Of a stretch of 64,000 nt of DNA, positions 1 through 49,032 are shown in pieces. The stretch is from Clostridiaceae bacterium. GTDB lineage: Bacteria; Bacillota; Clostridia; Christensenellales; CAG-138. Positions within the stretch are counted from its first letter, which is position 1. Every line of letters begins with the position of its first letter. The position numbers and the translations under genes are program-made. The notes beneath the pieces are model-generated. The model worked only from the letters and a program-made list of their open reading frames with translations. It was not told where the DNA came from and searched no databases. The stretch spans positions 527 to 64,526 of the forward strand of contig JBDKRL010000008.1 in the NCBI GenBank assembly GCA_039683415.1, written 5' to 3'.

Positions 1-1
1 G

Positions 2-3000
2 CTGGCGGTAGGCATTGCGACCATGACGGTCGGCTCGCTCGGTTACAACGGTACTTATGACGGCGATCCGCATGACCTTGTGGCAACTGCGAGCATCGAC
101 GGCATGACGATTCTCTACAGCGCGACTGAAGGCAGTGGTTACAGCGAGGACTGCCCGAGCTATACAAACGCCGGAACGTACACCGTCTACTTCAAGGCGG
201 TTGACCCGGACGGCAACTATGCCGACGCGACGGGCAGTGCGGATATCGTAATCACCAAGGCCGTACTCACGGTGACGGCGGATGACCGCTCCATGACCTA
301 TGGAGATATGGCGTCGCTTACCGCGGAAGGCGCAAGCTACAGCGGATTCGCCGATGGCGACAGTCTGTCGAACATCGGTATGACCGGCAGCGTCACCTTC
401 GGATACTTCGCCGGAGCGACATCTGTCACGGTAGATGCAACCCTCGGCGCAGGCGGCTACACGATCAAACCGAACGTGAGCGCGCTGAGCTCGGCCAACT
501 ACACGTTCACTCCGGGTAACGGAACGCTGACGGTAAACAAGGCGATCATGACGGTTGGCGCAATCGACGTGACCCACGTCTATGACGGCACGGCTTACAG
601 CGTCATCGCCAATGCAATACCGGATGATCCGAACACGGTGATCTACTACAACACCACCGGCGGAACGATGCTCTCCGACTACTTTGAGGAGATTCCGGAA
701 GCGATTGATGTTGCGGACAGCACCCGCGTCTACTTCCTCGCGGTGAACCCGAACTACGAAGACGCGACAGGCAGCGCAATGCTGACGATCACGCCGGCAG
801 TGATTACCGTGACTGCGGACAACCGCAGCATGACCTACGGCGACACGACGACGCTGACCCCCGCGGAAGGCGTTACGTATGCCGGTTTCGTCAATAGCGA
901 AACCAGCAGCGTCATCTCCGACGCGGGCAGCATTACCTATACGTATCAAGAAGGCGCAGCGCTCGTGACGGTGGATAACACCCTCGACGCCGGCGGCTAC
1001 TCGATCATCCCGGGTGTTGGTGGGCTCTCGGCTGCGAACTACTCGTTCGTGCCCGGCAACGGCACGCTGACGGTGAACCGTGCAACGGGTCTTGCGATCA
1101 ACGCGACATCGTACAACGAAAAGTACGATGGCGGGGAGCATGGCATTGGAACATCGCCGACGCCTGCGGAAGGCACGACGCTGCTCTACAGCCTCACGGG
1201 AGGCACGAACCTCTCCGCTTATACGCTCACGAGCAATCCGATGTTCAAGAACGCTATGAGCGCAAAGACCGTCTATGTTGCGGCGGTGAACGACAACTAT
1301 GTCACCGTGTTTGACCAGGCGACGGTTACGATTGCACGACGCACCATCAAGCTGGCTTCGGACAGCGAAACCCGCCCCTATAACGGATCGCCGCTGAGCC
1401 TGCCGGATGTGGCGGTTACCGGTGACGGGTTCGTTACAGGAGAAGGCTTTGTAACGGATCCGCAGTCAACCGTTTCCATCACCAATGTTAGCAGCGTGAC
1501 GAACGCATACAGCTACCCCGCCTTCATTCCGGGAACGAACGTGGACAACTATGCGTTCCAGAAGACGGAAGGCACGCTGGAAATCACAGCGGTTGAAGTC
1601 ACGGTGACCGCCGATGATCAAAGCATGACCTATGGCGATTCCTCCGCAACTCCGGCGGCAGGCGTCAGCTACAGCGGCTTTGTCAACAGTGAGACAGCGA
1701 GCGTTGTCTCCGGCACGGTTGGGTACAACTACTACGACGGTGCGACGGAAGTGTTCATCGGCAGTACGCTCGGCGCTGGCAGCTACGACATCACGCCGGA
1801 CCTAAGCGGCATTACCGCAACGAACTACACGTTCAAAGCGGCCGATGGCACGCTGACCGTCAACCCGGCTACGATGGAAGTCACGTCCGACGGATATAAC
1901 GAACTCTACGACGGCGCACCGCACGGACTGGAAGCGGAAGTGACCGGGCTGACCGGCATGACGATCACATACAGTGATTCCGTAACCGGAACATTTACGA
2001 ATGCGTCGCCTGAGTATACGAATGTCGGCACATACACCGTCTACTTCAAGGCGGTTGATCCGGACGGCAACTACGCCGATGCAACGGGCAGCGCACAGAT
2101 CATCATCCGCAAGGTGCAAGTCACGGTCACGGCGGACAACCGCATCATGACCTATGGCGACACCACGACGATGACCCCGGCGGAAGGCGTGACCTACGCT
2201 GGCTTCGTCAACGGCGAGAACGCAACGAGCGCAGGCGTAACGGGTCTTGTGAACTATTACTATTACGATAGTTTATGGGAGCTGGTTGGAGTGAGCAATA
2301 CGCTTGATGCGGGAATCTACACCATTAAACCGAGTGTGTTCTGGCTCTCTGCCGCGAACTACACGTTCGTTCCCGCCGACGGCACACTGACGGTGAACAA
2401 AGCGACCATGACGGTCGACTCGAGCGGAACACTTGCCGTGTATGACGGCTTCCCGTATGACCTTACAGCAACTGCGAGCGTCGACGGCATGACGATCCTC
2501 TACAGTGCGACAGCAGATGGCACGTATGGGTCGGTTTGCCCGTCCTATACAAACGCCGGAACGTACACCGTCTACTTTAAGGCGATTGACCCGGACGGCA
2601 ACTATGCCGAAGCGACGGGACATGCGGATATCGTAATCACAAAGGCTGTACTCACTGTGAGGGCGATTGACCGCTCCATGACCTATGGAGACATGTCCTC
2701 GCTTACCGTGGAAGACGCAAGCTTCAGCGGGTTTGCCTTTGGTGACAATCTCTCCAACATCGGCTTGACCGGCAGCGTCGGCTACTACTACTTCGACAGT
2801 GCGACGTTAGTAACAGTGGATGCGACGCTCGACGCAGGCAGCTACACGATTACCCCGTACGTGGGCTCGCTGAACTCGGCCAACTACACGTTCGTCCCGG
2901 CTGACGGAACGCTGACGGTATCTCCGGCGACGATGGAAGTTACGTCTCTTGGGTACGAAGACTACTATGACGGCGCGGCGCACGGTCTGACGGCAAGCGT

Positions 3001-6000
3001 GACAGGCCTCAGCGGCATGACGATCACCTACAGTGATTCGCCGAGCGGAACCTTCACCAGCGCGTCGCCTGAGTACACGAATGCCGGAACGTACACCGTC
3101 TACTTCAAGGCGGTTGATCCGGACGGCAACTATGCCGATGCAACGGGCAGCGCCGAGATCAACATCCGTCAGGTGGAAGTCACCGTGACGGCGGACGATC
3201 AGAACATGATGTATGGCGACACGACCGCTCCCGCGGAAACCGTTTCCTACAGCGGTTTTGTCAACGGCGAGAACGCAACGAGCGCGGGCGTGACGGGCGA
3301 TGTGCTCTACAGCTACTATGACAGCCTGATGTATATGGTTGCCGTAAGCAGCACGCTTGACGCAGGGCTGTACACCATCACCCCGGACGTGGGCGGGCTG
3401 AGCGCAACGAACTACTCGTTCGTCCCGGCTGACGGCACGCTGACGGTGGCTAAATCCGACGCTCTGGATGTGAGTGCCGACGATGTGGAAGCGCCTTACG
3501 ACGGATTTCCATACATGGTGAGCCCGAACGTAAACGACTGGAATGGCACCGATGTCTGGTACAGCCTGACCGACAGCACGGATCCGGCGGATTACTCGAT
3601 GACGCCGCCGTCGCTTGTGAATGTTGGCGACAGCGCTAGGGTCTACCTGATGGCGACGAACCTGAACTACGAAAACGCCTTTGGCAGCGCGCTGGTCACG
3701 ATAACGCCGGTGGAACTCACCGTTACGCCGGATGATCAGTACATGATCTATGGCGACACAACCTTGCCTGCAGAGAGCTCTGTTATTACGGGCTTTGTCA
3801 ACGGCGAGAACGAAACGACTGCCGGTGTCAGTGGTTCGATTGACTACAACTACTTCGACGGCACAACGCCGGTAACGGTCAGCAGCACGCTGCCTGCCGG
3901 AGACTACACCATCGAGGTGGGGCTCAGCAATCTTACCGCCCCGAACTACACGTTCACCAACGCGTCTGGCGCGCTGAACGTTGCCAGGTCGGAATCGTTG
4001 ACGGTGGACGCAACCGACATCAGCGAGATGTACAATGGCGGAACCCACATGGTCACGCCGCTTGCAAGCGACATGTCCGCCGATACGACCATCTGGTACA
4101 GCCTGACCGACAGCACGGATCCCGCGGACTACTCGACAACGCCGCCTGCACTTGTCAATGTTAGCGACAGCGCGACGGTCTACCTGATGGCGACGAACCC
4201 GAACTACTACCCGGCGTTTGGCGAGGCGGAAGTTGATATCACACCGCGTACGATCGCGATTGTCACCAACGGCGCAAACAAGGTCTACGACGCAACGCCG
4301 CTGACCGATAACGGCTGGAGTCTTGGTGCCGGCAACGATGGGTTCGCCAGCACCGAGGGCTTCCTGAGCGCAGAAGCCGTAGGCACGATTACGAACGCTG
4401 GTTTTGTGTTCAACACGTTCGACTACACGCTCACGAGCAATACGCTGCCCGGCAACTATGACTTCGATATCACGGAAGGCGTACTGATCATTAGCGCGCG
4501 GCCTGTCATAGTTGCGCTTGATCCGGCGGAGAAGAACTCCGGCGATCCTGACCCGGCATTCACCTTCCATTATCTGACGTTCCCGGGACTCTACGATGTA
4601 TTGCCCGGAACCGGTGCTACGGTGAACCTGATCAGAACGGACGCTCTGGCGGTCACGAGTGAGGATATTGGCGTTCATACCGATGTGCTGAGCATCAATG
4701 TCGTCTTTGCTGACGCGACTGCGGCAAGCAACTACGCGATTGTTCCTCAGAATGCCGACTTCACAATCCACCCGCAGGTGACGTACAACCTCGACACGCT
4801 GGACGCCGTTACCGGCTTCCCGGCGACGGAATGGTTCGACTATCTGAGCGATGCGACCATTGCGGATGCAACGGGTGTTGCCCGCCTTGGCTACGTACTG
4901 ACCGGATGGACGGACGACCTGACTGGCGATCCGATCGCTCTGGGCGAGACGATTACCGGCATCGACCGCAACTACAGCCTGACCGCTGTTTGGGAACTTG
5001 CCAGGTATAACGTGTTCTACAATGCGAACACTGCCATGGACGTCAACAACATGCCGGGCACGCAGGTGAACATTCCTTACACGAGCCTGACTGCTCTGTC
5101 CGACCGTGTTCCGACCCGCGCGGGCTTCACCTTCGTCCATTGGGATACGGCGGAAGTCCCCGGCCAGATCTCCTACGATCCGGGCGAAACGTTTACAATG
5201 CCCAACAGCGACGTAACGTTCTCCGCGGTTTGGGAACCCGACCTGACGCCTGTGTACTATCACGCGAACGGCGGCGTTGGCGGAACGATTGAAGACGGTC
5301 CGTTCGGAACGCTCACCACGGTGACCGTTGCGGGCAACGGCTTCACGAGACCCGGCTATCGCTTCATCGGCTGGAGCACCACGCCTACCGGCGCAGTCTC
5401 CGCACAGCCCGGCGATACCTTCATGATGCCGATTCTGCAGGTGAACTACTATGCGCAATGGGAGCAGGTGCTCTACACGGTGACGTACATCGTCAACGGC
5501 GGCACGACGGCCGGCCTGGATGGCGCGGTGCCGTACGCGGAATACACGGATCTTGCCTATGGCGACGCGATGCCGGTACCGGCTGATCCTGCGCAGGACG
5601 GCTACACCTTCGCTGGCTGGACTACGGCAGTCCCGGCGACCGTGCCCGAGGGCGGACTGACGATCTACGGCACGATGACCGAGAATACGCCGGAGATCAT
5701 CCCGGATGAACCCACCCCGCTGGCCGGCGCATCCTGGGCGCTGCTCAACCTGATTCTTGCCATTGCCACAGCGCTCGGCTCCGTGCTGATGCTCATCGGC
5801 CTGATCGGCAAGAAGCGTAAGGAAGAGCTCGAAGGCGTGGTTGTGCGTGAGACCAAGAAGCACCCCGTTACCCGGCTAATGACGCTGCTGCCCGCGATTG
5901 GCGGAATCATCGCCTTCATCCTCACGGAGAACATGAAGAACCCGATGACGTTCGTCGACCGCTGGACGATCCTGATGGCGGTCATTGCGGTACTGCAGAT

Positions 6001-6061
6001 CGCGCTCGTGATCCTCGGCGTCAAAAAGGACAAGGAAGTTGATCCCGAATCCGCCAAGTAA
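2..6061 (+). CDS. Giant repetitive cell-surface protein (MBG-like domains alternating with ~80-aa Ig-like repeats, 4 InlB B-repeat-like domains, C-terminal membrane anchor); 5' truncated by the window edge
   Basis: The frame is open from base 2 through ATG 23 to TAA 6061. It has seven VTVTADDRSMTYGD...GTLTV units, four YTN(A/V)GTYTVYFKA(V/I)DPDGNY units and four Y..N...G(Y/F)...GW-type repeats. It ends in PDEPTPLA followed by three hydrophobic helices. Confidence 0.9.
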   Translation: MAVGIATMTVGSLGYNGTYDGDPHDLVATASIDGMTILYSATEGSGYSEDCPSYTNAGTYTVYFKAVDPDGNYADATGSADIVITKAVLTVTADDRSMTYGDMASLTAEGASYSGFADGDSLSNIGMTGSVTFGYFAGATSVTVDATLGAGGYTIKPNVSALSSANYTFTPGNGTLTVNKAIMTVGAIDVTHVYDGTAYSVIANAIPDDPNTVIYYNTTGGTMLSDYFEEIPEAIDVADSTRVYFLAVNPNYEDATGSAMLTITPAVITVTADNRSMTYGDTTTLTPAEGVTYAGFVNSETSSVISDAGSITYTYQEGAALVTVDNTLDAGGYSIIPGVGGLSAANYSFVPGNGTLTVNRATGLAINATSYNEKYDGGEHGIGTSPTPAEGTTLLYSLTGGTNLSAYTLTSNPMFKNAMSAKTVYVAAVNDNYVTVFDQATVTIARRTIKLASDSETRPYNGSPLSLPDVAVTGDGFVTGEGFVTDPQSTVSITNVSSVTNAYSYPAFIPGTNVDNYAFQKTEGTLEITAVEVTVTADDQSMTYGDSSATPAAGVSYSGFVNSETASVVSGTVGYNYYDGATEVFIGSTLGAGSYDITPDLSGITATNYTFKAADGTLTVNPATMEVTSDGYNELYDGAPHGLEAEVTGLTGMTITYSDSVTGTFTNASPEYTNVGTYTVYFKAVDPDGNYADATGSAQIIIRKVQVTVTADNRIMTYGDTTTMTPAEGVTYAGFVNGENATSAGVTGLVNYYYYDSLWELVGVSNTLDAGIYTIKPSVFWLSAANYTFVPADGTLTVNKATMTVDSSGTLAVYDGFPYDLTATASVDGMTILYSATADGTYGSVCPSYTNAGTYTVYFKAIDPDGNYAEATGHADIVITKAVLTVRAIDRSMTYGDMSSLTVEDASFSGFAFGDNLSNIGLTGSVGYYYFDSATLVTVDATLDAGSYTITPYVGSLNSANYTFVPADGTLTVSPATMEVTSLGYEDYYDGAAHGLTASVTGLSGMTITYSDSPSGTFTSASPEYTNAGTYTVYFKAVDPDGNYADATGSAEINIRQVEVTVTADDQNMMYGDTTAPAETVSYSGFVNGENATSAGVTGDVLYSYYDSLMYMVAVSSTLDAGLYTITPDVGGLSATNYSFVPADGTLTVAKSDALDVSADDVEAPYDGFPYMVSPNVNDWNGTDVWYSLTDSTDPADYSMTPPSLVNVGDSARVYLMATNLNYENAFGSALVTITPVELTVTPDDQYMIYGDTTLPAESSVITGFVNGENETTAGVSGSIDYNYFDGTTPVTVSSTLPAGDYTIEVGLSNLTAPNYTFTNASGALNVARSESLTVDATDISEMYNGGTHMVTPLASDMSADTTIWYSLTDSTDPADYSTTPPALVNVSDSATVYLMATNPNYYPAFGEAEVDITPRTIAIVTNGANKVYDATPLTDNGWSLGAGNDGFASTEGFLSAEAVGTITNAGFVFNTFDYTLTSNTLPGNYDFDITEGVLIISARPVIVALDPAEKNSGDPDPAFTFHYLTFPGLYDVLPGTGATVNLIRTDALAVTSEDIGVHTDVLSINVVFADATAASNYAIVPQNADFTIHPQVTYNLDTLDAVTGFPATEWFDYLSDATIADATGVARLGYVLTGWTDDLTGDPIALGETITGIDRNYSLTAVWELARYNVFYNANTAMDVNNMPGTQVNIPYTSLTALSDRVPTRAGFTFVHWDTAEVPGQISYDPGETFTMPNSDVTFSAVWEPDLTPVYYHANGGVGGTIEDGPFGTLTTVTVAGNGFTRPGYRFIGWSTTPTGAVSAQPGDTFMMPILQVNYYAQWEQVLYTVTYIVNGGTTAGLDGAVPYAEYTDLAYGDAMPVPADPAQDGYTFAGWTTAVPATVPEGGLTIYGTMTENTPEIIPDEPTPLAGASWALLNLILAIATALGSVLMLIGLIGKKRKEELEGVVVRETKKHPVTRLMTLLPAIGGIIAFILTENMKNPMTFVDRWTILMAVIAVLQIALVILGVKKDKEVDPESAK

Positions 6062-6079: not shown

Positions 6080-6114
6080 AAAAGCGGCGCCTCCAAAAAG
6101 GGCGCCGCTTTTTT
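6080..6114 (+). terminator. Rho-independent terminator after the giant surface protein gene
   Basis: AAAAGCGGCGCC-loop-GGCGCCGCTTTTTT. Confidence 0.85.
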
Positions 6115-6459
6115 CGGCGTTTCGGCAATTTTTTGTTAAAAGCGCATTGCGACTAATCTGCTGCAAGAAAGAGGCATTGATGCATCCATGGCAAAAACAG
6201 ACGGGTTTCTCAGTTTGACCACCTGCGGCAGCGGCTTTCCCAATGAGGGGATCATAGCACAACCCGACGGCAGTTTTGCGGAAACAGAAGGTGACAGAGC
6301 CAGAATCAGTTACTGCGCGTAAAAAGATTCTTACACTGTATCTTGTATATTCATGAAATACAACCACAACATTCGGCGTAGATTTGATACAATGTAACAT
6401 GAAACGGCGAAAATGCGCGAGTTTTTAGTTTTTGCGTGATGTTTTGCGGTAACAATTTG

Positions 6460-6489
6460 TTGCAATGTTGTAATTTACGGCTGTATAAT
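6460..6489 (+). promoter_or_regulatory. sigmaA-type promoter of the transglutaminase/pil operon, probably leaderless
   Basis: TTGCAA-N18-TATAAT lies 6 nt before ATG 6496, with no Shine-Dalgarno sequence. Confidence 0.6.
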
Positions 6490-6495
6490 CGGTAC

Positions 6496-7419
6496 ATGGA
6501 GAAACGGTCGACGGCCGGACGGCTGCAACAATGGATTCCGCGGCTGCTGATTTTCGGCTTCATCTGCCTGTTCGCGTGCTCAAAGACCCCGACGCGCGCG
6601 GTTTTGCAAGAGGAGACCGTTTCCGATGACGCGCCCGTAGCTCTGGCCGGAAATACGCCCGCTGCCGATGAAACGGCAGACAAGCTGCTGCTTCCGGAAG
6701 CTTCCGGAACGGTTGTATACGAAGGTCAGGGCGTTACCATCGACGCTTCCCACACGGATCAGGGATATGTGATGATTCGCTGCGAGCAGACCGAGAAGCG
6801 CCTTAAAGCGCGTGTTTCGACCAGTGCGCAGACGTATTACTACGATTTGCCGAGCGGGGAAGACTACAGCGTGTTTCCGCTGCAAATGGGCGACGGCGAC
6901 TATACGTTGCGCATCATGGAGCAGGTGGAGGACGACCTCTACGCCGTTCGCTACAGCGTGGATATCGAAGTTGCGCTTGCAGACGAGACGATTCCCTTTT
7001 TGTACCCCAGTCAGTATGTCTGGTACGACGCTGAAAGTGACACGGTTGAGACTTCCCGCGAGGTGACGGGTGAGTTGACGGACGAAGAAAAAATCGTAAA
7101 AGCCTGCTACCGCTTTGTGGTTAATCACATTGCGTACGATACCCAAAAGGCCAAAACGGTGGAAAGCGGATATCTGCCCAATGCGGATGAAACGCTCGAA
7201 ACCGGCAAAGGCATCTGCTTTGACTACTCGGTGCTGCTGGCTGTCATGCTCCGCTCGCAGGGAATTCCGACTCGCGTTGTGATTGGCATGGTGTCGCCGG
7301 AAAATCTTTACCACGCCTGGAACAGCGTCTACCTCGACGGCGAATGGGTCTGGATGGACCCGACGCTCGACGGCATGGGTCATCGCGAGAGCGATTATGT
7401 GACCGAGCGCATTTACTAG
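6496..7419 (+). CDS. Transglutaminase-like domain protein, probable lipoprotein (putative cysteine protease or transamidase)
   Basis: N-terminal hydrophobic stretch ending in LFAC; triad motifs GICFDY, YHAWN and WMDPT. Confidence 0.85.
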   Translation: MEKRSTAGRLQQWIPRLLIFGFICLFACSKTPTRAVLQEETVSDDAPVALAGNTPAADETADKLLLPEASGTVVYEGQGVTIDASHTDQGYVMIRCEQTEKRLKARVSTSAQTYYYDLPSGEDYSVFPLQMGDGDYTLRIMEQVEDDLYAVRYSVDIEVALADETIPFLYPSQYVWYDAESDTVETSREVTGELTDEEKIVKACYRFVVNHIAYDTQKAKTVESGYLPNADETLETGKGICFDYSVLLAVMLRSQGIPTRVVIGMVSPENLYHAWNSVYLDGEWVWMDPTLDGMGHRESDYVTERIY

Positions 7420-7497
7420 CGCTGCCAAAGCCGCAAATAACAGCGAAAACGGGCAGGCCAAGGCGACAACGTTTCTGGCAAGAGAGGGAAAAACGGT

Positions 7498-8553
7498 ATG
7501 ACGGACGAAACAAAACAAAAAACGCTCCCGCCGGAAGAAACGGCGCTCTTTTGCGAGCAGGTGGCAATGGTGCTCAAGGCCGGTATTCCTCTCAGCGACG
7601 GTATGGAAACGCTGGCCAAAAGCTATGCCGACAGCCGCTACGGCGCGCGCTTTCTGCAGATTCAGACCGCGCTCGAACGGCGCGGATCGCTCTCCGGCGC
7701 GCTGGAGGACGCGGGGATCTTCCCCAAATACCTTTGCGCCATGGTGCGTATCGGCGAGCGGGCGGGCAAGCTGGACGAAGTGATGACCTCGCTTGCGAAT
7801 TACTACCAATGGGAAGCGGATATCCGTATCTCCGTAAAAAATGCGATTCTTTACCCGACCGTGCTGGTGATGATGCTGGCGGTGGTCATTGCGATATTGG
7901 TCATCAGCGTGCTGCCGGTATTCCAGCGCGTGTTCGACAGCCTGGGACTGGCGGCGGGGGCGCCCGCAAGCGCAGCCATGCGCATCGGCGTTGGCGTTGG
8001 CAAAGGGATGCTCGTGCTGGTCGGCGTGTTTGCGGTACTGCTCGTAGTGATCGGGATTTCTCTCAAATCTTCGCGCAGGGAATCGGTGCTTGCGTTGCTG
8101 TCCCGGTTTTTACCGCCGGTTCGGCGCGTCATCGCCCGGCTCTCCGCAGCGCGGTATGCCACGGTGCTTTCGATGATGCTTTCCGCGGGGTATCCGCTGG
8201 AAGATGCCATCCGTCTTTCGCCGACGGTCATTTCGGACGCAAAGTTCCGTGAGAAAGCGGAGCTGAGCGCGCAAAAGCTTAAGCAAGGCGCGTCGTTTGC
8301 GGATGCTGCGGAAGCAAGCGGGCTGTTTGAACCGATGCACGAAAAGATGATCCGCTTCGGTTCGGCAGCGGGTAAGCTGGACGCCGTGATGGAAAAAATC
8401 GGTACTATATATATGGAAGAAGCGGACGAGGCGATCCACGCCGTTGTTTCGATGATTGAGCCGACGCTTGTTGCGGTGCTTTCCATCGTGATTGGCGGGA
8501 TTCTGCTTTCGGTTATGCTGCCGCTGCTCTCGGTACTGTCGGCAGTGGCGTAA
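7498..8553 (+). CDS. Type II secretion system F family / PilC-like platform protein
   Basis: Two T2SSF repeats (LFCEQVAMVLKAGIPL...GERAGKLDEVM and LSMMLSAGYPL...GSAAGKLDAVM), each followed by TM helices. Confidence 0.92.
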   Translation: MTDETKQKTLPPEETALFCEQVAMVLKAGIPLSDGMETLAKSYADSRYGARFLQIQTALERRGSLSGALEDAGIFPKYLCAMVRIGERAGKLDEVMTSLANYYQWEADIRISVKNAILYPTVLVMMLAVVIAILVISVLPVFQRVFDSLGLAAGAPASAAMRIGVGVGKGMLVLVGVFAVLLVVIGISLKSSRRESVLALLSRFLPPVRRVIARLSAARYATVLSMMLSAGYPLEDAIRLSPTVISDAKFREKAELSAQKLKQGASFADAAEASGLFEPMHEKMIRFGSAAGKLDAVMEKIGTIYMEEADEAIHAVVSMIEPTLVAVLSIVIGGILLSVMLPLLSVLSAVA

Positions 8554-8555
8554 GG

Positions 8556-8750
8556 GGACTTTTTGGAGGCGCTGCCTCCAAACCACCGCTCAGGGCCTAG
8601 GCAGCCCTGAGAACCCGCCGGAGCTCAGCGAGGGTTTCCAAAGGGCGTACCCTTTGGCGGGAGCTCGAGGGCGGAGCCCTCGAATAAGTTCGGGAGCTCG
8701 AGGGCGGAGCCCTCGAATAAGTTCCGGAACGCGAAAACGGAGCCCTCGAA
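8556..8750. repeat. REP-like palindromic element cluster (family 1) with an exact 33-bp tandem duplication
   Basis: GGGTTTCCAAAGGGCGTACCCTTTGG core plus the hairpin TCGAGGGCGGAGCCCTCGA; 8658-8690 is identical to 8691-8723. Confidence 0.8.
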
Positions 8751-8791
8751 AATCAATAGGAAGTTTTTATCGGAAGGAGGGGAACAAAGCC

Positions 8792-9121
8792 ATGCATTTG
8801 TATGAAAACCGGCGTAGTGCCAACCGTGGTCTGATTGCCGCGGGCGCGATCTTTCTTGCGCTGATCCTGCTGTTTAGCGTCGCTCTGCTCTCCGCCTCCA
8901 AAAGGAACGCGGCGCAGGAAACGGAGTTGCTCGACAGCGCGATCAGGCGGGCGGTTGTCACCTGCTACGCGGTCGAAGGCAAGTACCCGCCGAGCCTCGA
9001 TTATCTCTATAAAAACTACGGCGTGTATGTCGACGAAAGCCGGTATGCCGTGTTTTACGATGTGTTCGCGGCAAACGTAATGCCGTCGCTGACGGTCACG
9101 GCGATCGGGGGTGGCCGGTGA
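8792..9121 (+). CDS. Small pilin-like / pseudopilin-like protein
   Basis: SD AGGAGG; basic N-terminus, then Gly and a single hydrophobic helix; coupled to downstream genes. Confidence 0.7.
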   Translation: MHLYENRRSANRGLIAAGAIFLALILLFSVALLSASKRNAAQETELLDSAIRRAVVTCYAVEGKYPPSLDYLYKNYGVYVDESRYAVFYDVFAANVMPSLTVTAIGGGR

Positions 9122-9624
9122 TGGAGCGCTCGAATGCTGTGCGGGACGCGCGCGGGGATATCCGCGGCGTATTCGTGTTTGCGTTGCTTGCGGCGTTTGC
9201 CGTGCTCTCGCTCGTTGTGGTGGTCGTTGGTGCGCGCTCGTACCGGGCGATCTACCAGGCTTCTGACGAGGCACTTTCCTACCGCACGGGCATGAGCTAT
9301 CTGATCGGCAAAGCGCGCGGCGCGGACGAAGCGGATATGCTGCAAGTGCGTTCGGAAAACGGAACGGACGTCCTCGTGCTCGGCAGTCTCTATGAAAACG
9401 AGCGCTACAACACCTATATTTACTGCAAAGACGGCGCGATTTTGGAGTATTTTGCCGCGGATACGCAGGCGTTTGACCCCGGCTACGGCGAAGAGATTTT
9501 GCAGGCGCAGGAACTGCACTTTACGATTGCTCAGCAGATGCTCACGATTTCACTGACGGATGCTTCCGGGAACACGTATGTTTCCGAGGTGCAGCTTTCC
9601 GCGGCGGGAGGGGATGCTTCATGA
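9118..9624 (+). CDS. DUF4860-like pilin-type protein
   Basis: IRG|VFVFALLAAF helix, GARSY, YLIGKARGAD and YNTYIYCKDG motifs, as I recall them from the DUF4860 family. Confidence 0.72.
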   Translation: MMERSNAVRDARGDIRGVFVFALLAAFAVLSLVVVVVGARSYRAIYQASDEALSYRTGMSYLIGKARGADEADMLQVRSENGTDVLVLGSLYENERYNTYIYCKDGAILEYFAADTQAFDPGYGEEILQAQELHFTIAQQMLTISLTDASGNTYVSEVQLSAAGGDAS

Positions 9625-10043
9625 ACGAGCGGCCATTGAAACCCCTAAAAAAGCGCGGCATGTTCAGCCCGGTGCTCATTGAGCTTTCCATCGTGATTCT
9701 GTTTTTCGCGCTCTCGACGGGCATCGTCGTGCAGCTCATCGCGTCTGCGAGCAGAATTTCGAACGAAAGCACGTTTCATTCGCAGGCATTGCTGGCAATG
9801 GAGACCGTCGCCGAGGAAACGAAGGCCGACCCGGAAGGGGACGGCGCGTTTGACGAGTGCGGCGTACGCGCGTTCACTAAAGCAGTTTCGGAACAGATCA
9901 CGGTGGAAGGCGTCGTCACCCGCGACGAAAGTCCGGAGAACGGAACGCTGTATACCATCGATTTAAGCGTACTCTCGGCGGAAGGAACGGCCTATACGCT
10001 GTCCGCCATGCGCTACGTTTCAACGGGGGAGGTACTGCCGTGA
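9621..10043 (+). CDS. Pilin-like / type II secretion pseudopilin-like protein
   Basis: KKRG|MFSPVLIELSIVILFF N-terminus; ATGA overlap with the upstream gene. Confidence 0.7.
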   Translation: MNERPLKPLKKRGMFSPVLIELSIVILFFALSTGIVVQLIASASRISNESTFHSQALLAMETVAEETKADPEGDGAFDECGVRAFTKAVSEQITVEGVVTRDESPENGTLYTIDLSVLSAEGTAYTLSAMRYVSTGEVLP

Positions 10044-10462
10044 AGAAGTATCCTTCCCGAATGGGTGTTGGCGCATCGAGCATCCTGCTCATCCTCGTCG
10101 TGGTCAGCTTGACGCTGTTTGCCGTGCTTTCTCTGGTGCAGGCAAGGGCGGATGCGGCGCTGACGGAGAAAACCGCATTGAGCGTGAGCGCGTTTTACGA
10201 CGCGGACGCGCGTGCCCAGCAGATGCTTGCCCAGCTTGACGGCGCGATTACCGCAGGTCAGGACCCGACCGCGATCGACGGGGTCACGCGTACGGGAGAA
10301 AACGAATACGCGTTTACTATCGGTTCATTCGACGGGCATACGTTGGACGTAGCCATGCAGGTTGAAAACGGACGCGCGGATGTGACGCGCTACCGCTACG
10401 AAAGCGCGCAGGAGTGGGTCGGAGAAAGCACGGATACGGTTTGGCAGGGAGACGGAGCATGA
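10040..10462 (+). CDS. Pilin-like membrane-anchored protein
   Basis: RMG|VGASSILLILVVVSLTLFAVLSL helix; GTGA overlap. Confidence 0.68.
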   Translation: MKKYPSRMGVGASSILLILVVVSLTLFAVLSLVQARADAALTEKTALSVSAFYDADARAQQMLAQLDGAITAGQDPTAIDGVTRTGENEYAFTIGSFDGHTLDVAMQVENGRADVTRYRYESAQEWVGESTDTVWQGDGA

Positions 10463-11532
10463 CGGAGATTGGTGAAATCCTCAATATAGCGATACAAACG
10501 GGCGGCTCGGATGTGTTCATCATTCCCGGAACGCGCGTTTGCATCAAGGTGTCCGGCGCGGTGCAGCCCATGATGCAGGACGCGGTGCTCAAGCCCGACG
10601 ATACGCGCCGGCTGATCAAACAGGTGTACGAACTGGACGGGCGTGATATGGCGCGCCTGCTCGACCACGGAGACGACGACTTTTCGTTTTCCGTCAGCGG
10701 CGTGGGGAGGTTTCGGTGCAACGCGTATAAACAGCGCAACTCGCTTGCCATGGTGTTGCGCATTGTCTCGCTGAACCTGCCCGACCCGGAAGCGATGCAT
10801 ATCCCAAAGGAAGTGCTCGATCTTTCGACCGTTAAAAAGGGCCTCGTGCTGGTGACCGGCCCTGCCGCAAGCGGAAAATCGACCACGCTGGCCTGCGTGA
10901 TCGACCGCATCAACGCTTCCCGCAGCGGGCACATCATCACCATTGAAGACCCCATCGAGTTCATCCACCCGCATAAAAGGAGTGTCGTTTCCCAGCGGGA
11001 GATTGAACACGATACGGACAGCTATCAATCCGCGCTGCGCGCCGCGCTGCGGCAGGCGCCAGATGTGATTCTTCTGGGGGAGATGCGGGACTTTGACACC
11101 ATTCAAACCGCGCTGACCGCGGCGGAAACCGGCCAGCTCGTGCTCAGCACGCTCCATACCGTTGGAGCCGCAAAGACGATTGACCGCATCATCGACGTGT
11201 TTCCCGCCAACCAGCAGCAGCAGATTCGCGTCCAGCTCTCCATGGTGCTGCGCGCGGTGGTCAGCCAGCAGCTGCTGCCGACGCTGGACGGGTGTCTGGA
11301 ACCCGCGTTTGAGATTATGCTTGCCAACAGCGCGATTCAAAACATGATCCGCGACGGCAAAGCGCATCAAATGGACAACGTGATCTTTTCCGGCATGGAG
11401 GACGGCATGCGTTCTATGGATGCGGATATTTTCCGCCTCTACGAAGCGGGGCGCATCAGCGCGGAAACTGCGCGCCTGTACGCTTCCAATCAGGAAATGA
11501 TGAAGAAAAAATTTGCAGGCTATAAGAGTTAA
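10459..11532 (+). CDS. pilT: PilT/PilU family type IV pilus ATPase
   Basis: Walker A GPAASGKST, Asp box TIEDPIE, Walker B PDVILLGEMRD, His box GQLVLSTLHT, AIQNMIRD helix. Confidence 0.92.
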   Translation: MTEIGEILNIAIQTGGSDVFIIPGTRVCIKVSGAVQPMMQDAVLKPDDTRRLIKQVYELDGRDMARLLDHGDDDFSFSVSGVGRFRCNAYKQRNSLAMVLRIVSLNLPDPEAMHIPKEVLDLSTVKKGLVLVTGPAASGKSTTLACVIDRINASRSGHIITIEDPIEFIHPHKRSVVSQREIEHDTDSYQSALRAALRQAPDVILLGEMRDFDTIQTALTAAETGQLVLSTLHTVGAAKTIDRIIDVFPANQQQQIRVQLSMVLRAVVSQQLLPTLDGCLEPAFEIMLANSAIQNMIRDGKAHQMDNVIFSGMEDGMRSMDADIFRLYEAGRISAETARLYASNQEMMKKKFAGYKS

Positions 11533-11643
11533 CCGAAGAATTTGCCGGGCAGCGCCCGAAAACCAGATAACGAAAAATCGAGCCGGGTAGCGCCCGAAAA
11601 TATGTTTTTGAACTCAAGCGACGCAACAGGAAGGAAGGTCGGC

Positions 11644-12891
11644 ATGTCCCAAACAAAGATAAAAATCAAAATGTTCGGCAATTTTGAAATTATTGTCAAC
11701 GGAAACGTGGTGCTCTCTCAGCTCCGGCAGGCAAAAAAAACCTGCCAGTTTCTGGAGTACCTGATCCTCAAAAAGGATCGCGCGGTACCCCACGAGGAAC
11801 TGCTGGAGATGCTCTGGTCGGATAAAGAAAACAGAAATCCCGCCACCGCGCTCAGGACGCTTTTGCACCGCTACCGCTCGCTCGTGGACGAAAGCGGCCT
11901 GCCGGAGCTTGCGGAATCCATTTTGACCGCGCGCGGCGCGTATCAGTGGAACCCGAACCTCGACTGCGAAATCGACGTGTTCAAGTTCGAGCAGCTCTGC
12001 CAGGAGGCAAGGACGCCCGGCATGTCCAACCGCGACTGCATCGAGCGGTATCTGCAGATGCTGCAGATCTATACAGGGCCGCTGCTCACCAATTCCGCCG
12101 AAGAGATGTGGGTCGTGCCCAAGAGCGTGTATTACCACGACCTCTTTTTAGAGAGCGTGTTTACGCTGCTCGATCTGCTCAAAACGGAAGAGGAGTACGA
12201 TATGATTGTCCAGGTCTGCCGAAAGGCCATGGACGTGGATATGTTCGACGAGCGGCTGCATCTTGAGCTCATGATGGCGCTGGTGAAAACCGGCAAAAAG
12301 CGCGAGGCGCTCTCGCAGTACTATTTTGCCACCGACCTGCATTATAAACAGCTCGGCATCCAGCCCTCCGGCGAGATCCGCGCGGTATACAAACTCATCG
12401 TCCAGGCCGATCAGGAGATGGAAGCGGATATCGAAAAAGTGCAGGGCATGCTCGAGGAGGATTCGGACACCCACGGCGCGTTCGTCTGCGAGTATGAAAT
12501 CTTCAAGGAGATCTATCAGCTCCAGCGCCGCATGCTCGAGCGCTATAACGGCACGATGTTTTTAGCGCTTTTAACCATCAGCAACACCTATGAGCAGCGC
12601 TTTGACAATCTGGTTCTCGACAACATCATGAAGCAGCTGCTGCATGTTTCGCAGTCGAGTCTCCGGCGCGGGGACACGATTTCGCGCTACAGTGTCATGC
12701 AATACGTCGTGCTGCTGCCTTCGGTCACCTACGAAACGGGGCGTCTCGTCATGGATCGTATCAAAAAGGCGTTCTATCAGGAATACGTCAAATCCTCGGT
12801 GGTGCTGACCTATAAACTGCGACCGCTTTGCATTAATAAATACGAAACACCAACCCCGAAACGCGTCAGCGAGCCGCGTGCGGACACCTGA
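11644..12891 (+). CDS. SARP-like transcriptional activator (wHTH + BTAD) with a C-terminal degenerate GGDEF domain
   Basis: IKMFGNFEI...LEYLIL...EELLEMLW...LRTLLHRYR wHTH; BTAD segment DMFDERLHLELMMALVKTG; C-terminal LRRGDTISRYSVMQYVVLL. Confidence 0.85.
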   Translation: MSQTKIKIKMFGNFEIIVNGNVVLSQLRQAKKTCQFLEYLILKKDRAVPHEELLEMLWSDKENRNPATALRTLLHRYRSLVDESGLPELAESILTARGAYQWNPNLDCEIDVFKFEQLCQEARTPGMSNRDCIERYLQMLQIYTGPLLTNSAEEMWVVPKSVYYHDLFLESVFTLLDLLKTEEEYDMIVQVCRKAMDVDMFDERLHLELMMALVKTGKKREALSQYYFATDLHYKQLGIQPSGEIRAVYKLIVQADQEMEADIEKVQGMLEEDSDTHGAFVCEYEIFKEIYQLQRRMLERYNGTMFLALLTISNTYEQRFDNLVLDNIMKQLLHVSQSSLRRGDTISRYSVMQYVVLLPSVTYETGRLVMDRIKKAFYQEYVKSSVVLTYKLRPLCINKYETPTPKRVSEPRADT

Positions 12892-12906: not shown

Positions 12907-12933
12907 AACGGAAGCCAAACGGCTTCCGTTTCT
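12907..12933 (+). terminator. Probable terminator hairpin
   Basis: AACGGAAGCC-AAAC-GGCTTCCGTTTCT. Confidence 0.6.
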
Positions 12934-13089: not shown

Positions 13090-13118
13090 TTGACACTTTG
13101 TCGCTTGCATGATAGAAT
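13090..13118 (+). promoter_or_regulatory. sigmaA promoter upstream of the capF-like gene
   Basis: TTGACA-N17-TAGAAT with an extended -10 TG. Confidence 0.75.
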
Positions 13119-48794: not shown

Positions 48795-49032
48795 GGATGA
48801 CGGCATCGGGAGAGACCGCAATAGTCGCGGCGCCGAAGGGGAATGCGCAACAAACTCTCAGGCAAAAGGACCGATACCCGACGAAGCTTCGGAAAGCCGC
48901 TTCCACTATTTTATGAGTAGAAGGGGCACCGACGAGGCAATTCCGCGTTTAAGGCACAGCAGGGAAACGCGGGAGAATCTTTCAGGTTCAGATACGGGGC
49001 GCGCGAAGAGTATTCGCGCGTCTCGTTTTTTG
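48795..49032 (+). ncRNA. Tandem glycine riboswitch with a terminator expression platform
   Basis: GGAGAGACC...CGCCGAAGG...CTCTCAGG; AAAAGGAC linker; GGAAAG...CACCGA...TTTCAGG; then stem GGGGCGCGCGAA/TTCGCGCGTCTC with a T-run. Confidence 0.9.

Follow-up and report, generated by a model that had tools for sequence, protein, structure and literature searches.

Networks of cyclic di-GMP (c-di-GMP) in Clostridia contain many enzymes for synthesis and degradation of the messenger and few known receptors. One described receptor type has a GGDEF fold without the catalytic motif, in which an RxxD sequence is kept five residues upstream of the lost motif; PelD from P. aeruginosa, PopA from Caulobacter, SgmT from Myxococcus, YdaK from B. 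subtilis and PssE from Listeria belong to it and govern surface polysaccharides, adhesion or development. Firmicute precedents are YdaK (PMC5422440, PMC7064775) and PssE (PMC4125290). Enzymes that make c-di-GMP use the same residues for product inhibition. In DgcR, dimeric c-di-GMP cross-links the RxxD of one GGDEF domain to R163 (R313 in PleD) in helix α0 of the other, and the primary site of PleD additionally uses R390, which is R237 in DgcR (PMC8041772). Here, we analyse a regulator gene in a 64,000-nucleotide stretch of a Clostridiaceae genome of the order Christensenellales (assembly GCA_039683415.1, contig JBDKRL010000008.1), referred to below as the window. The encoded protein joins a DNA-binding and activating SARP module to a dead, shortened GGDEF domain that retains this product-inhibition site (I-site), and its gene closes an operon for a pilus-like apparatus (Table 1). 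We think it reasonably likely that the regulator is a one-component, c-di-GMP-sensing and autoregulated transcription activator, with the full mechanism set out below. In Christensenellaceae and other Clostridia, such a regulator would probably amount to a c-di-GMP-controlled switch of a type not yet described, set over a pilus-like surface operon.

The C-terminal part of the regulator adopts a GGDEF fold in prediction. A domain-only AlphaFold model (residues 270-415, 35 sequences) has a predicted local distance difference test (pLDDT) score of 86.8, and GGDEF domains make up all of its top 50 Foldseek matches. The best score is a template modelling (TM) value of 0.73 at 2.6 Å, to the c-di-GMP-bound GGDEF domain 3ign; WspR is matched with TM 0.70-0.71 at 2.1-2.3 Å, and WspR, DgcR and 3ign overall with TM ~0.7 at root-mean-square deviations of 2.1-2.8 Å. 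Profile searches give 15.8 bits for Pfam GGDEF (PF00990), below the cut-off of 23.8, and 15.6 bits for the cyclase profile TIGR00254, below its cut-off of 37.4; coverage of the Pfam and NCBIfam hidden Markov models (HMMs) ends at ~107-119 of 161-168 positions. The modelled fold likewise ends after β4 (~residue 395) with a disordered tail. Missing is the last third of a complete GGDEF domain, which consists of a helix and strands and carries the phosphate-binding Lys and Arg. GGDEF_2 (PF17853), a domain of PucR/CdaR-type regulators, has no match at E up to 1 in a Pfam scan of the regulator.

The register of the lost motif is the same in each alignment. A phmmer search against Protein Data Bank (PDB) chains places 'slRRGDtisrySVMQYvvllp' column for column on 'sfRksDiisrfGGEEFvilfp' of DgcR (6zxm); the same register is obtained with 3ign and SadC, and a profile of 35 family members gives it identically. 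The original prediction, made from the sequence alone, had read positions 12661-12705 as a GGDEF motif replaced by SVMQY with RxxD kept, and this reading (L-RRGD-TISRY-SVMQY, residues 340-354) is borne out, as is the GGDEF fold that had been named beforehand as its test. The family consensus at the motif position is S-x-x-Q-Y/F, and no member has GGDEF. As judged from its residues and model, the C-terminal domain is unable to make c-di-GMP, because T311 and S313 stand where the metal-binding Asp pair (D-x-D) was in the 6zxm alignment, SVMQY stands for GGEEF and the fold stops after β4.

The residues with which cyclases hold their product are kept in this domain. Equivalences were counted through the 6zxm alignment, in which chain numbering is the paper numbering plus 20, and they assign R341, D344 and R372 to the primary site and R300 to the secondary site, with five residues between D344 and S350. 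With the C-terminal domain as query, exhaustive HMMER searching retrieved 1562 proteins, each standing for a cluster at 50% identity; E was ≤ 1e-10 for 508 of these. With few exceptions the proteins are ~400 amino acids long and carry the domain at the C-terminus, and the family comprises at least 508 clusters and 395 species genomes, chiefly of Christensenellales and other Clostridia. Conservation was counted in 100 full-length representatives, one for each cluster at ≤50% identity: all 100 have R341 and D344, 99 have R372 and 97 have R300, with a mean identity to the query of ~40% for the whole domain. Conservation of RxxD in homologues, another test attached to the original prediction, is thus complete in this set, and the invariance of R341 and D344 argues that RRGD is no chance match. 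Among family members from the sampled genomes, 65 of 66 retain R341, D344 and R372. RxxD is also no structural necessity of the fold, because it is present in only 11 of the 16 motif-bearing GGDEF domains of the same genome. By alignment, the regulator keeps the complete primary and secondary allosteric-site constellation of product-inhibited cyclases.

The N-terminal half is, on profile and model evidence, a SARP module composed of a winged helix and a bacterial transcriptional activation domain (BTAD). BTAD (PF03704) scores 64.4 bits (cut-off 22.1) and aligns with AfsR in the PDB. The winged helix scores 25.6 bits in the Pfam scan, slightly below the cut-off of 26.2; most homologues carry PF00486 in precomputed Pfam annotation, and the recognition-helix segment NPxTALRTLLHRYR is nearly invariant across the family. 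NCBIfam returns weak AfsR/SARP and cyclase matches. In the full-length AlphaFold model (pLDDT 80), residues 1 to ~250-260 match EmbR and AfsR in Foldseek (E ~1e-10; TM 0.68-0.70, AfsR-normalised, for winged helix plus BTAD), and the C-terminus matches GGDEF domains. Public annotation of such proteins gives only 'BTAD' or 'winged helix'/wHTH. The gene is present in a single copy, no paralogues were found in the genome, and the ATG at 11644 is the start codon common to homologues. In the β0-α0 part of the GGDEF-fold domain, the segment GAFxCEYxxFKxIYxLxxRxxxR (residues 278-300), with a single invariant cysteine, is conserved as strongly as the I-site. This segment has pLDDT <50 in the full-length model and forms a confident β0 strand and α0 helix in the domain-only model.

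The genome encodes 19 GGDEF, 2 EAL and 8 HD-GYP domains (29 turnover domains), and by this gene content the host makes c-di-GMP. Receptors of known type are one PilZ domain (C19:81524-81820) and three class-I c-di-GMP riboswitches, at C2:88765-88945 and C16:90303-90401, with two of the three in tandem and one followed ~1.3 kb downstream by an HD-GYP gene (C16:91746-92222). No c-di-GMP riboswitch lies near the operon; the only riboswitch in the window is a glycine riboswitch, whose aptamer is at 48797-48883 (Rfam RF00504, 64.8 bits). Occurrence of the regulator follows that of cyclases. The order was sampled with 201 genomes, of which ~17% carry the family, and canonical GGDEF domains are found in 33 of 34 carriers of the domain and in 61 of 167 non-carriers (Fisher p = 7.5e-12, a statistic that ignores kinship and genome size). 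In the wider class, with 399 scored genomes and 31 true family carriers, canonical GGDEF occurs in 31/31 carriers; sampled genomes whose regulator has an intact site have canonical GGDEF cyclases in 64/64 cases. The only carrier genome without any GGDEF domain (G088; its congener G024 also has none) encodes a regulator (L086, 4997-6223) that reads L-P-G-D for R-R-G-D, with R341 changed to L and R372 to S. A genome of the same GTDB family (G060) has seven GGDEF domains, and its regulator retains RRGD and the R372 equivalent. Loss of the I-site in the cyclase-free genome, one evolutionary event, is the outcome that a c-di-GMP-binding role would predict. The regulator of that genome does not lie beside a pilus operon.

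The genomic setting suggests what the regulator controls. The original prediction had noted a pil/transglutaminase operon next to the gene; the regulator turns out to be the conserved last gene of this operon, with gene order and orientation kept in 61 of 83 related loci. The order holds down to 40% regulator identity, and to ~24% in one genome (G043). The ATPase and regulator genes lie a median of ~66 bp apart, and only 11 nt apart in one locus (L003). A terminator at 6080-6112 parts the unit from the gene of a giant surface protein upstream. The transglutaminase gene at the head of the unit is apparently leaderless, because TATAAT-N6-ATG is conserved in 27 orthologous loci as well as in the window; an 18-nt spacer separates TATAAT from the -35 hexamer TTGCAA (6460-6465).

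Two candidate operator boxes accompany this promoter. The proximal box is nearly invariant in orthologous promoters with diverged flanks, and its 16-mer is unique in the 3.2-Mb genome; the position of the distal box is kept in ~30 orthologous promoters. Both fall inside 6300-6495, the stretch that the original prediction had named for an electrophoretic mobility shift assay. TGTAAC/GTTACA occurs 59 times in 49 operon promoters, a ~27-fold enrichment over the background of 0.045 per 220 nt. Where no operon lies upstream, a box is found within 330 nt upstream of the regulator in 18 of 21 loci, often as the palindrome GTTACAWTGTAAC. In two Christensenellaceae chromosomes (L031, 9540-10010, and L032) with an 87% identical regulator, the whole pilus operon has been lost; the promoter, with both TGTAAC boxes and TATAAT, is kept ~250 nt upstream of the regulator, which stands directly before a Bac_transf/GT4/Polysacc_synt glycan cluster. 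The box thus travels with the transcription unit of the regulator, since it is kept with and without the operon. Because the travelling box is paired with a nearly invariant ALRTLLHRYR segment, autoregulation through the candidate TGTAAC boxes would be the most economical reading. Genome-wide operator searches that allowed three mismatches or fewer in the 16-mer, or at most one in the 13-mer palindrome, gave matches at chance level and no convincing second target. A sigma-54 reading of the proximal box was rejected on inspection: GG and GC are spaced by 12 instead of 10, the GG is missing from orthologues, and the promoter has a proper TATAAT -10.

Several observations count against a c-di-GMP-dependent activator and have to be weighed with the alternatives that they might favour. 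C282, Y284, F287 and R296 occur in 99, 92, 96 and 96 of the 100 representatives, and an I-site model leaves them unexplained; we know of no characterised I-site receptor that is truncated after β4. A scan of the 83 related loci with GGDEF, EAL and HD-GYP HMMs built from the domains of the genome itself found a c-di-GMP enzyme gene within 10 kb in only 8 loci, which is about background and no enrichment; a consistent HD-GYP neighbour occurs only in clade P0118. Phylogeny and genome size confound the co-occurrence test, in which loss of the I-site is a single event. A shortened domain below the Pfam threshold, strongly conserved residues outside the I-site and the missing neighbourhood tie to c-di-GMP enzymes would all suit a dead GGDEF domain that acts as a ligand-free dimerisation module or scaffold, in which the Arg and Asp residues form interdomain or intersubunit salt bridges and control is exerted by expression level only, as in small SARPs. 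The four most conserved polar positions are, however, exactly the c-di-GMP contacts of PleD and DgcR, and a structural role would not predict that carriers nearly always have cyclases and that the cyclase-free carrier lacks two of the arginines, which makes a ligand-free module unlikely. Another nucleotide, such as pGpG, GTP, (p)ppGpp, c-di-AMP or 3'3'-cGAMP, could occupy the pocket, given that ligand specificity is not fixed by sequence alone and that GTP binding at the A-site is known for some degenerate GGDEF domains. We consider this improbable, because the A-site residues are gone (T311, S313, SVMQY and no C-terminal phosphate-binding part) and RxxD with two extra arginines is the constellation that holds a c-di-GMP dimer; the co-occurrence, too, is with GGDEF cyclases.

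Other doubts concern the output rather than the ligand. That high c-di-GMP would activate rather than repress is an assumption based on other SARPs. SARPs bind direct repeats, and it is unusual for this group that the boxes often form palindromes with a half-site spacing of only 7 bp; they are candidate sites and could be those of another factor. The regulator might then sense c-di-GMP and act mainly on the downstream glycan cluster or the giant adhesin gene. Such a role would agree with the two chromosomes in which the regulator persists without the pilus operon before a glycan cluster like that downstream in the window, and with the adjacency of the adhesin gene in several contexts. The boxes go with the promoter of the regulator itself in both contexts, however; no box precedes the downstream glycan genes at their promoter-like site (13090-13118), and the uniqueness of the proximal 16-mer also speaks against a main target elsewhere, for which we see little likelihood.

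For the c-di-GMP-dependent activator that we prefer, the following course of events can be proposed. As in PleD and DgcR, an intercalated c-di-GMP dimer would link two sensor domains by contacting the primary site of one and the secondary site of the other, and would thereby dimerise or re-orient two regulator molecules. The pair would take the TGTAAC boxes at 6386-6399 and 6449-6464; the SARP module, bound at or beside the -35 element, would recruit RNA polymerase as AfsR does and activate a weak promoter (TTGCAA, 18 nt, TATAAT). High c-di-GMP would thus switch on the PilT/PilC-like apparatus and the transglutaminase, and the loop would be positively autoregulated, because the regulator is the last gene of its own operon. 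The upstream adhesin and the downstream glycan cluster may be further responders. Binding of c-di-GMP by the regulator, taken alone, is fairly likely, and somewhat more so than the full mechanism. A broader proposal is possible and decidedly more tentative: SARP-dead-GGDEF proteins could form a large unannotated Clostridia family of c-di-GMP-dependent activators that act as c-di-GMP-cross-linked dimers on -35 TGTAAC boxes, with positive feedback on a non-canonical, PilT-only pilus-like apparatus, and would be the first transcription factors to sense through the product-inhibition site of a cyclase.

Table 1. Features of the regulator, its promoter and its operon (positions are those of the window).
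Feature	Position	Strand	Description and basis
Regulator gene	11644..12891	+	415 aa; SARP plus degenerate, shortened GGDEF domain; open reading frame and translation
Ribosome-binding site GGAAGGAAGG	11630-11639	+	precedes ATG 11644
OmpR-type winged helix, aa 30-98	11731..11937	+	Pfam Trans_reg_C (PF00486); Foldseek to EmbR and AfsR
BTAD, aa 110-251	11971..12396	+	Pfam PF03704
Shortened GGDEF-fold domain, aa 280-395	12481..12828	+	β0-α0-β1-α1-β2-β3-α3-β4; AF2 domain model, Foldseek
R300, helix α0	12541..12543	+	secondary I-site; equals DgcR R163, PleD R313
R341-R-G-D344	12664..12675	+	primary I-site RxxD; aligns to DgcR R206xxD209
S350-V-M-Q-Y354	12691..12705	+	at the GG(D/E)EF position; alignment to 6zxm
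R372, helix α3	12757..12759	+	third primary I-site residue; equals DgcR R237, PleD R390
Distal candidate box GATACAATGTAACA	6386..6399	+	near-palindrome of GTTACAWTGTAAC; 55 bp upstream of proximal box
Proximal candidate box GTAACAATTTGTTGCA	6449..6464	+	overlaps -35 TTGCAA
-10 TATAAT, 6 nt, ATG of transglutaminase gene	6484..6498	+	promoter scan, orthologous loci
Co-oriented upstream genes of the unit	6496..11532	+	Pfam, NCBIfam
Transglutaminase-like gene	6496-7419	+	
PilC/GspF-like gene	7498-8553	+	
Four small membrane-anchored proteins	8792-9121; 9118-9624 (DUF4860); 9621-10043; 10040-10462	+	
PilT-family ATPase gene	10414-11532	+	NCBIfam pilT_fam, 402 bits (cut-off 319)
Terminator-like hairpin closing the unit	12907..12930	+	10-bp stem, then T-run

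The operon and its surroundings have further features. The PilT-family protein is the sole ATPase of the pilus-like cluster (7498-11532), where neither a PilB-type ATPase nor a prepilin peptidase is encoded, and no canonical G/FTLxE prepilin motif occurs in any of the four small membrane proteins. A 33-bp tandem repeat (8658-8750; 2.8 copies, 90% match) separates the PilC-like gene from the first of the small genes, and each unit holds a CTCGAGGGC/GCCCTCGAG hairpin. The repeat gives rise to a spurious long open reading frame at 8492-9121, and the true gene probably begins at 8792 (MHLYENRR...). The giant surface protein upstream (window 1-6061; contig C8:1-6587) contains seven MBG_2 repeats, Flg_new and Big_13; it exceeds 2012 amino acids, because no stop codon occurs upstream as far as the contig start, and its promoter lies outside the assembly. 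In Christensenella sp. clade P0118 (240 member sequences on 451 contigs; L004/L005/L057, 10001-17500), the regulator gene has as neighbours a Crp-like cNMP-binding regulator, two very short open reading frames, an HD-GYP phosphodiesterase and a 1467-aa MucBP/Flg_new adhesin.

Christensenellaceae are abundant in the gut and in anaerobic digesters, and to our knowledge almost nothing is known about their regulation. If the proposed role is correct, the regulator would fill part of the receptor gap in Clostridia, extend the catalogue of receptor-output combinations by a new one, and provide an example of a feedback site that has been recycled into a signal-dependent dimeriser. It would also give an experimental handle on regulation of surface structures in Christensenellaceae, provided by one protein with four point mutants and by a promoter of 110 bp. 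A literature search on SARP/BTAD proteins with GGDEF or c-di-GMP, and on transcription factors with degenerate GGDEF domains, found no SARP-GGDEF fusion and no transcription factor with a GGDEF I-site sensor in the papers covered; CdeR proved to be an unrelated Ner-like protein.

Compared with described systems, the regulator combines elements that have been known apart. None of PelD, PopA, SgmT, YdaK and PssE, which comprise membrane proteins, a kinase and a protease adaptor, has a DNA-binding domain; c-di-GMP binding has been shown for them, whereas here it is predicted from sequence. The domain of the regulator differs from theirs in being shortened after β4 and fused to a SARP module, and through this fusion it would act on transcription directly. 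The four c-di-GMP contacts are shared with PleD, WspR and DgcR (6zxm; PMC8041772). Those proteins are active enzymes in which the cross-link turns catalysis off; the regulator has no catalytic activity that could be turned off, and the cross-link would instead act as a signal-dependent dimeriser. BldD of Streptomyces (PMC4151990, PMC5499655) follows the same principle, in that c-di-GMP oligomers join two copies of a transcription factor into the DNA-binding form, but it is a repressor, has no GGDEF fold and binds a c-di-GMP tetramer through RxD-X8-RxxD motifs in a C-terminal domain that is unrelated. EmbR (SARP-FHA; 2fez/2ff4) and AfsR (SARP-NOD-TPR; 8hvr/8k60) share with the regulator the arrangement in which an appended sensor governs a SARP output, and by this likeness a site that overlaps a weak -35 element would be expected. 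In contrast to both, the sensor is a dead GGDEF domain rather than FHA or NOD/TPR, the hosts are Clostridia rather than Actinobacteria, and the candidate operator contains palindromic TGTAAC boxes instead of classical direct heptamers.

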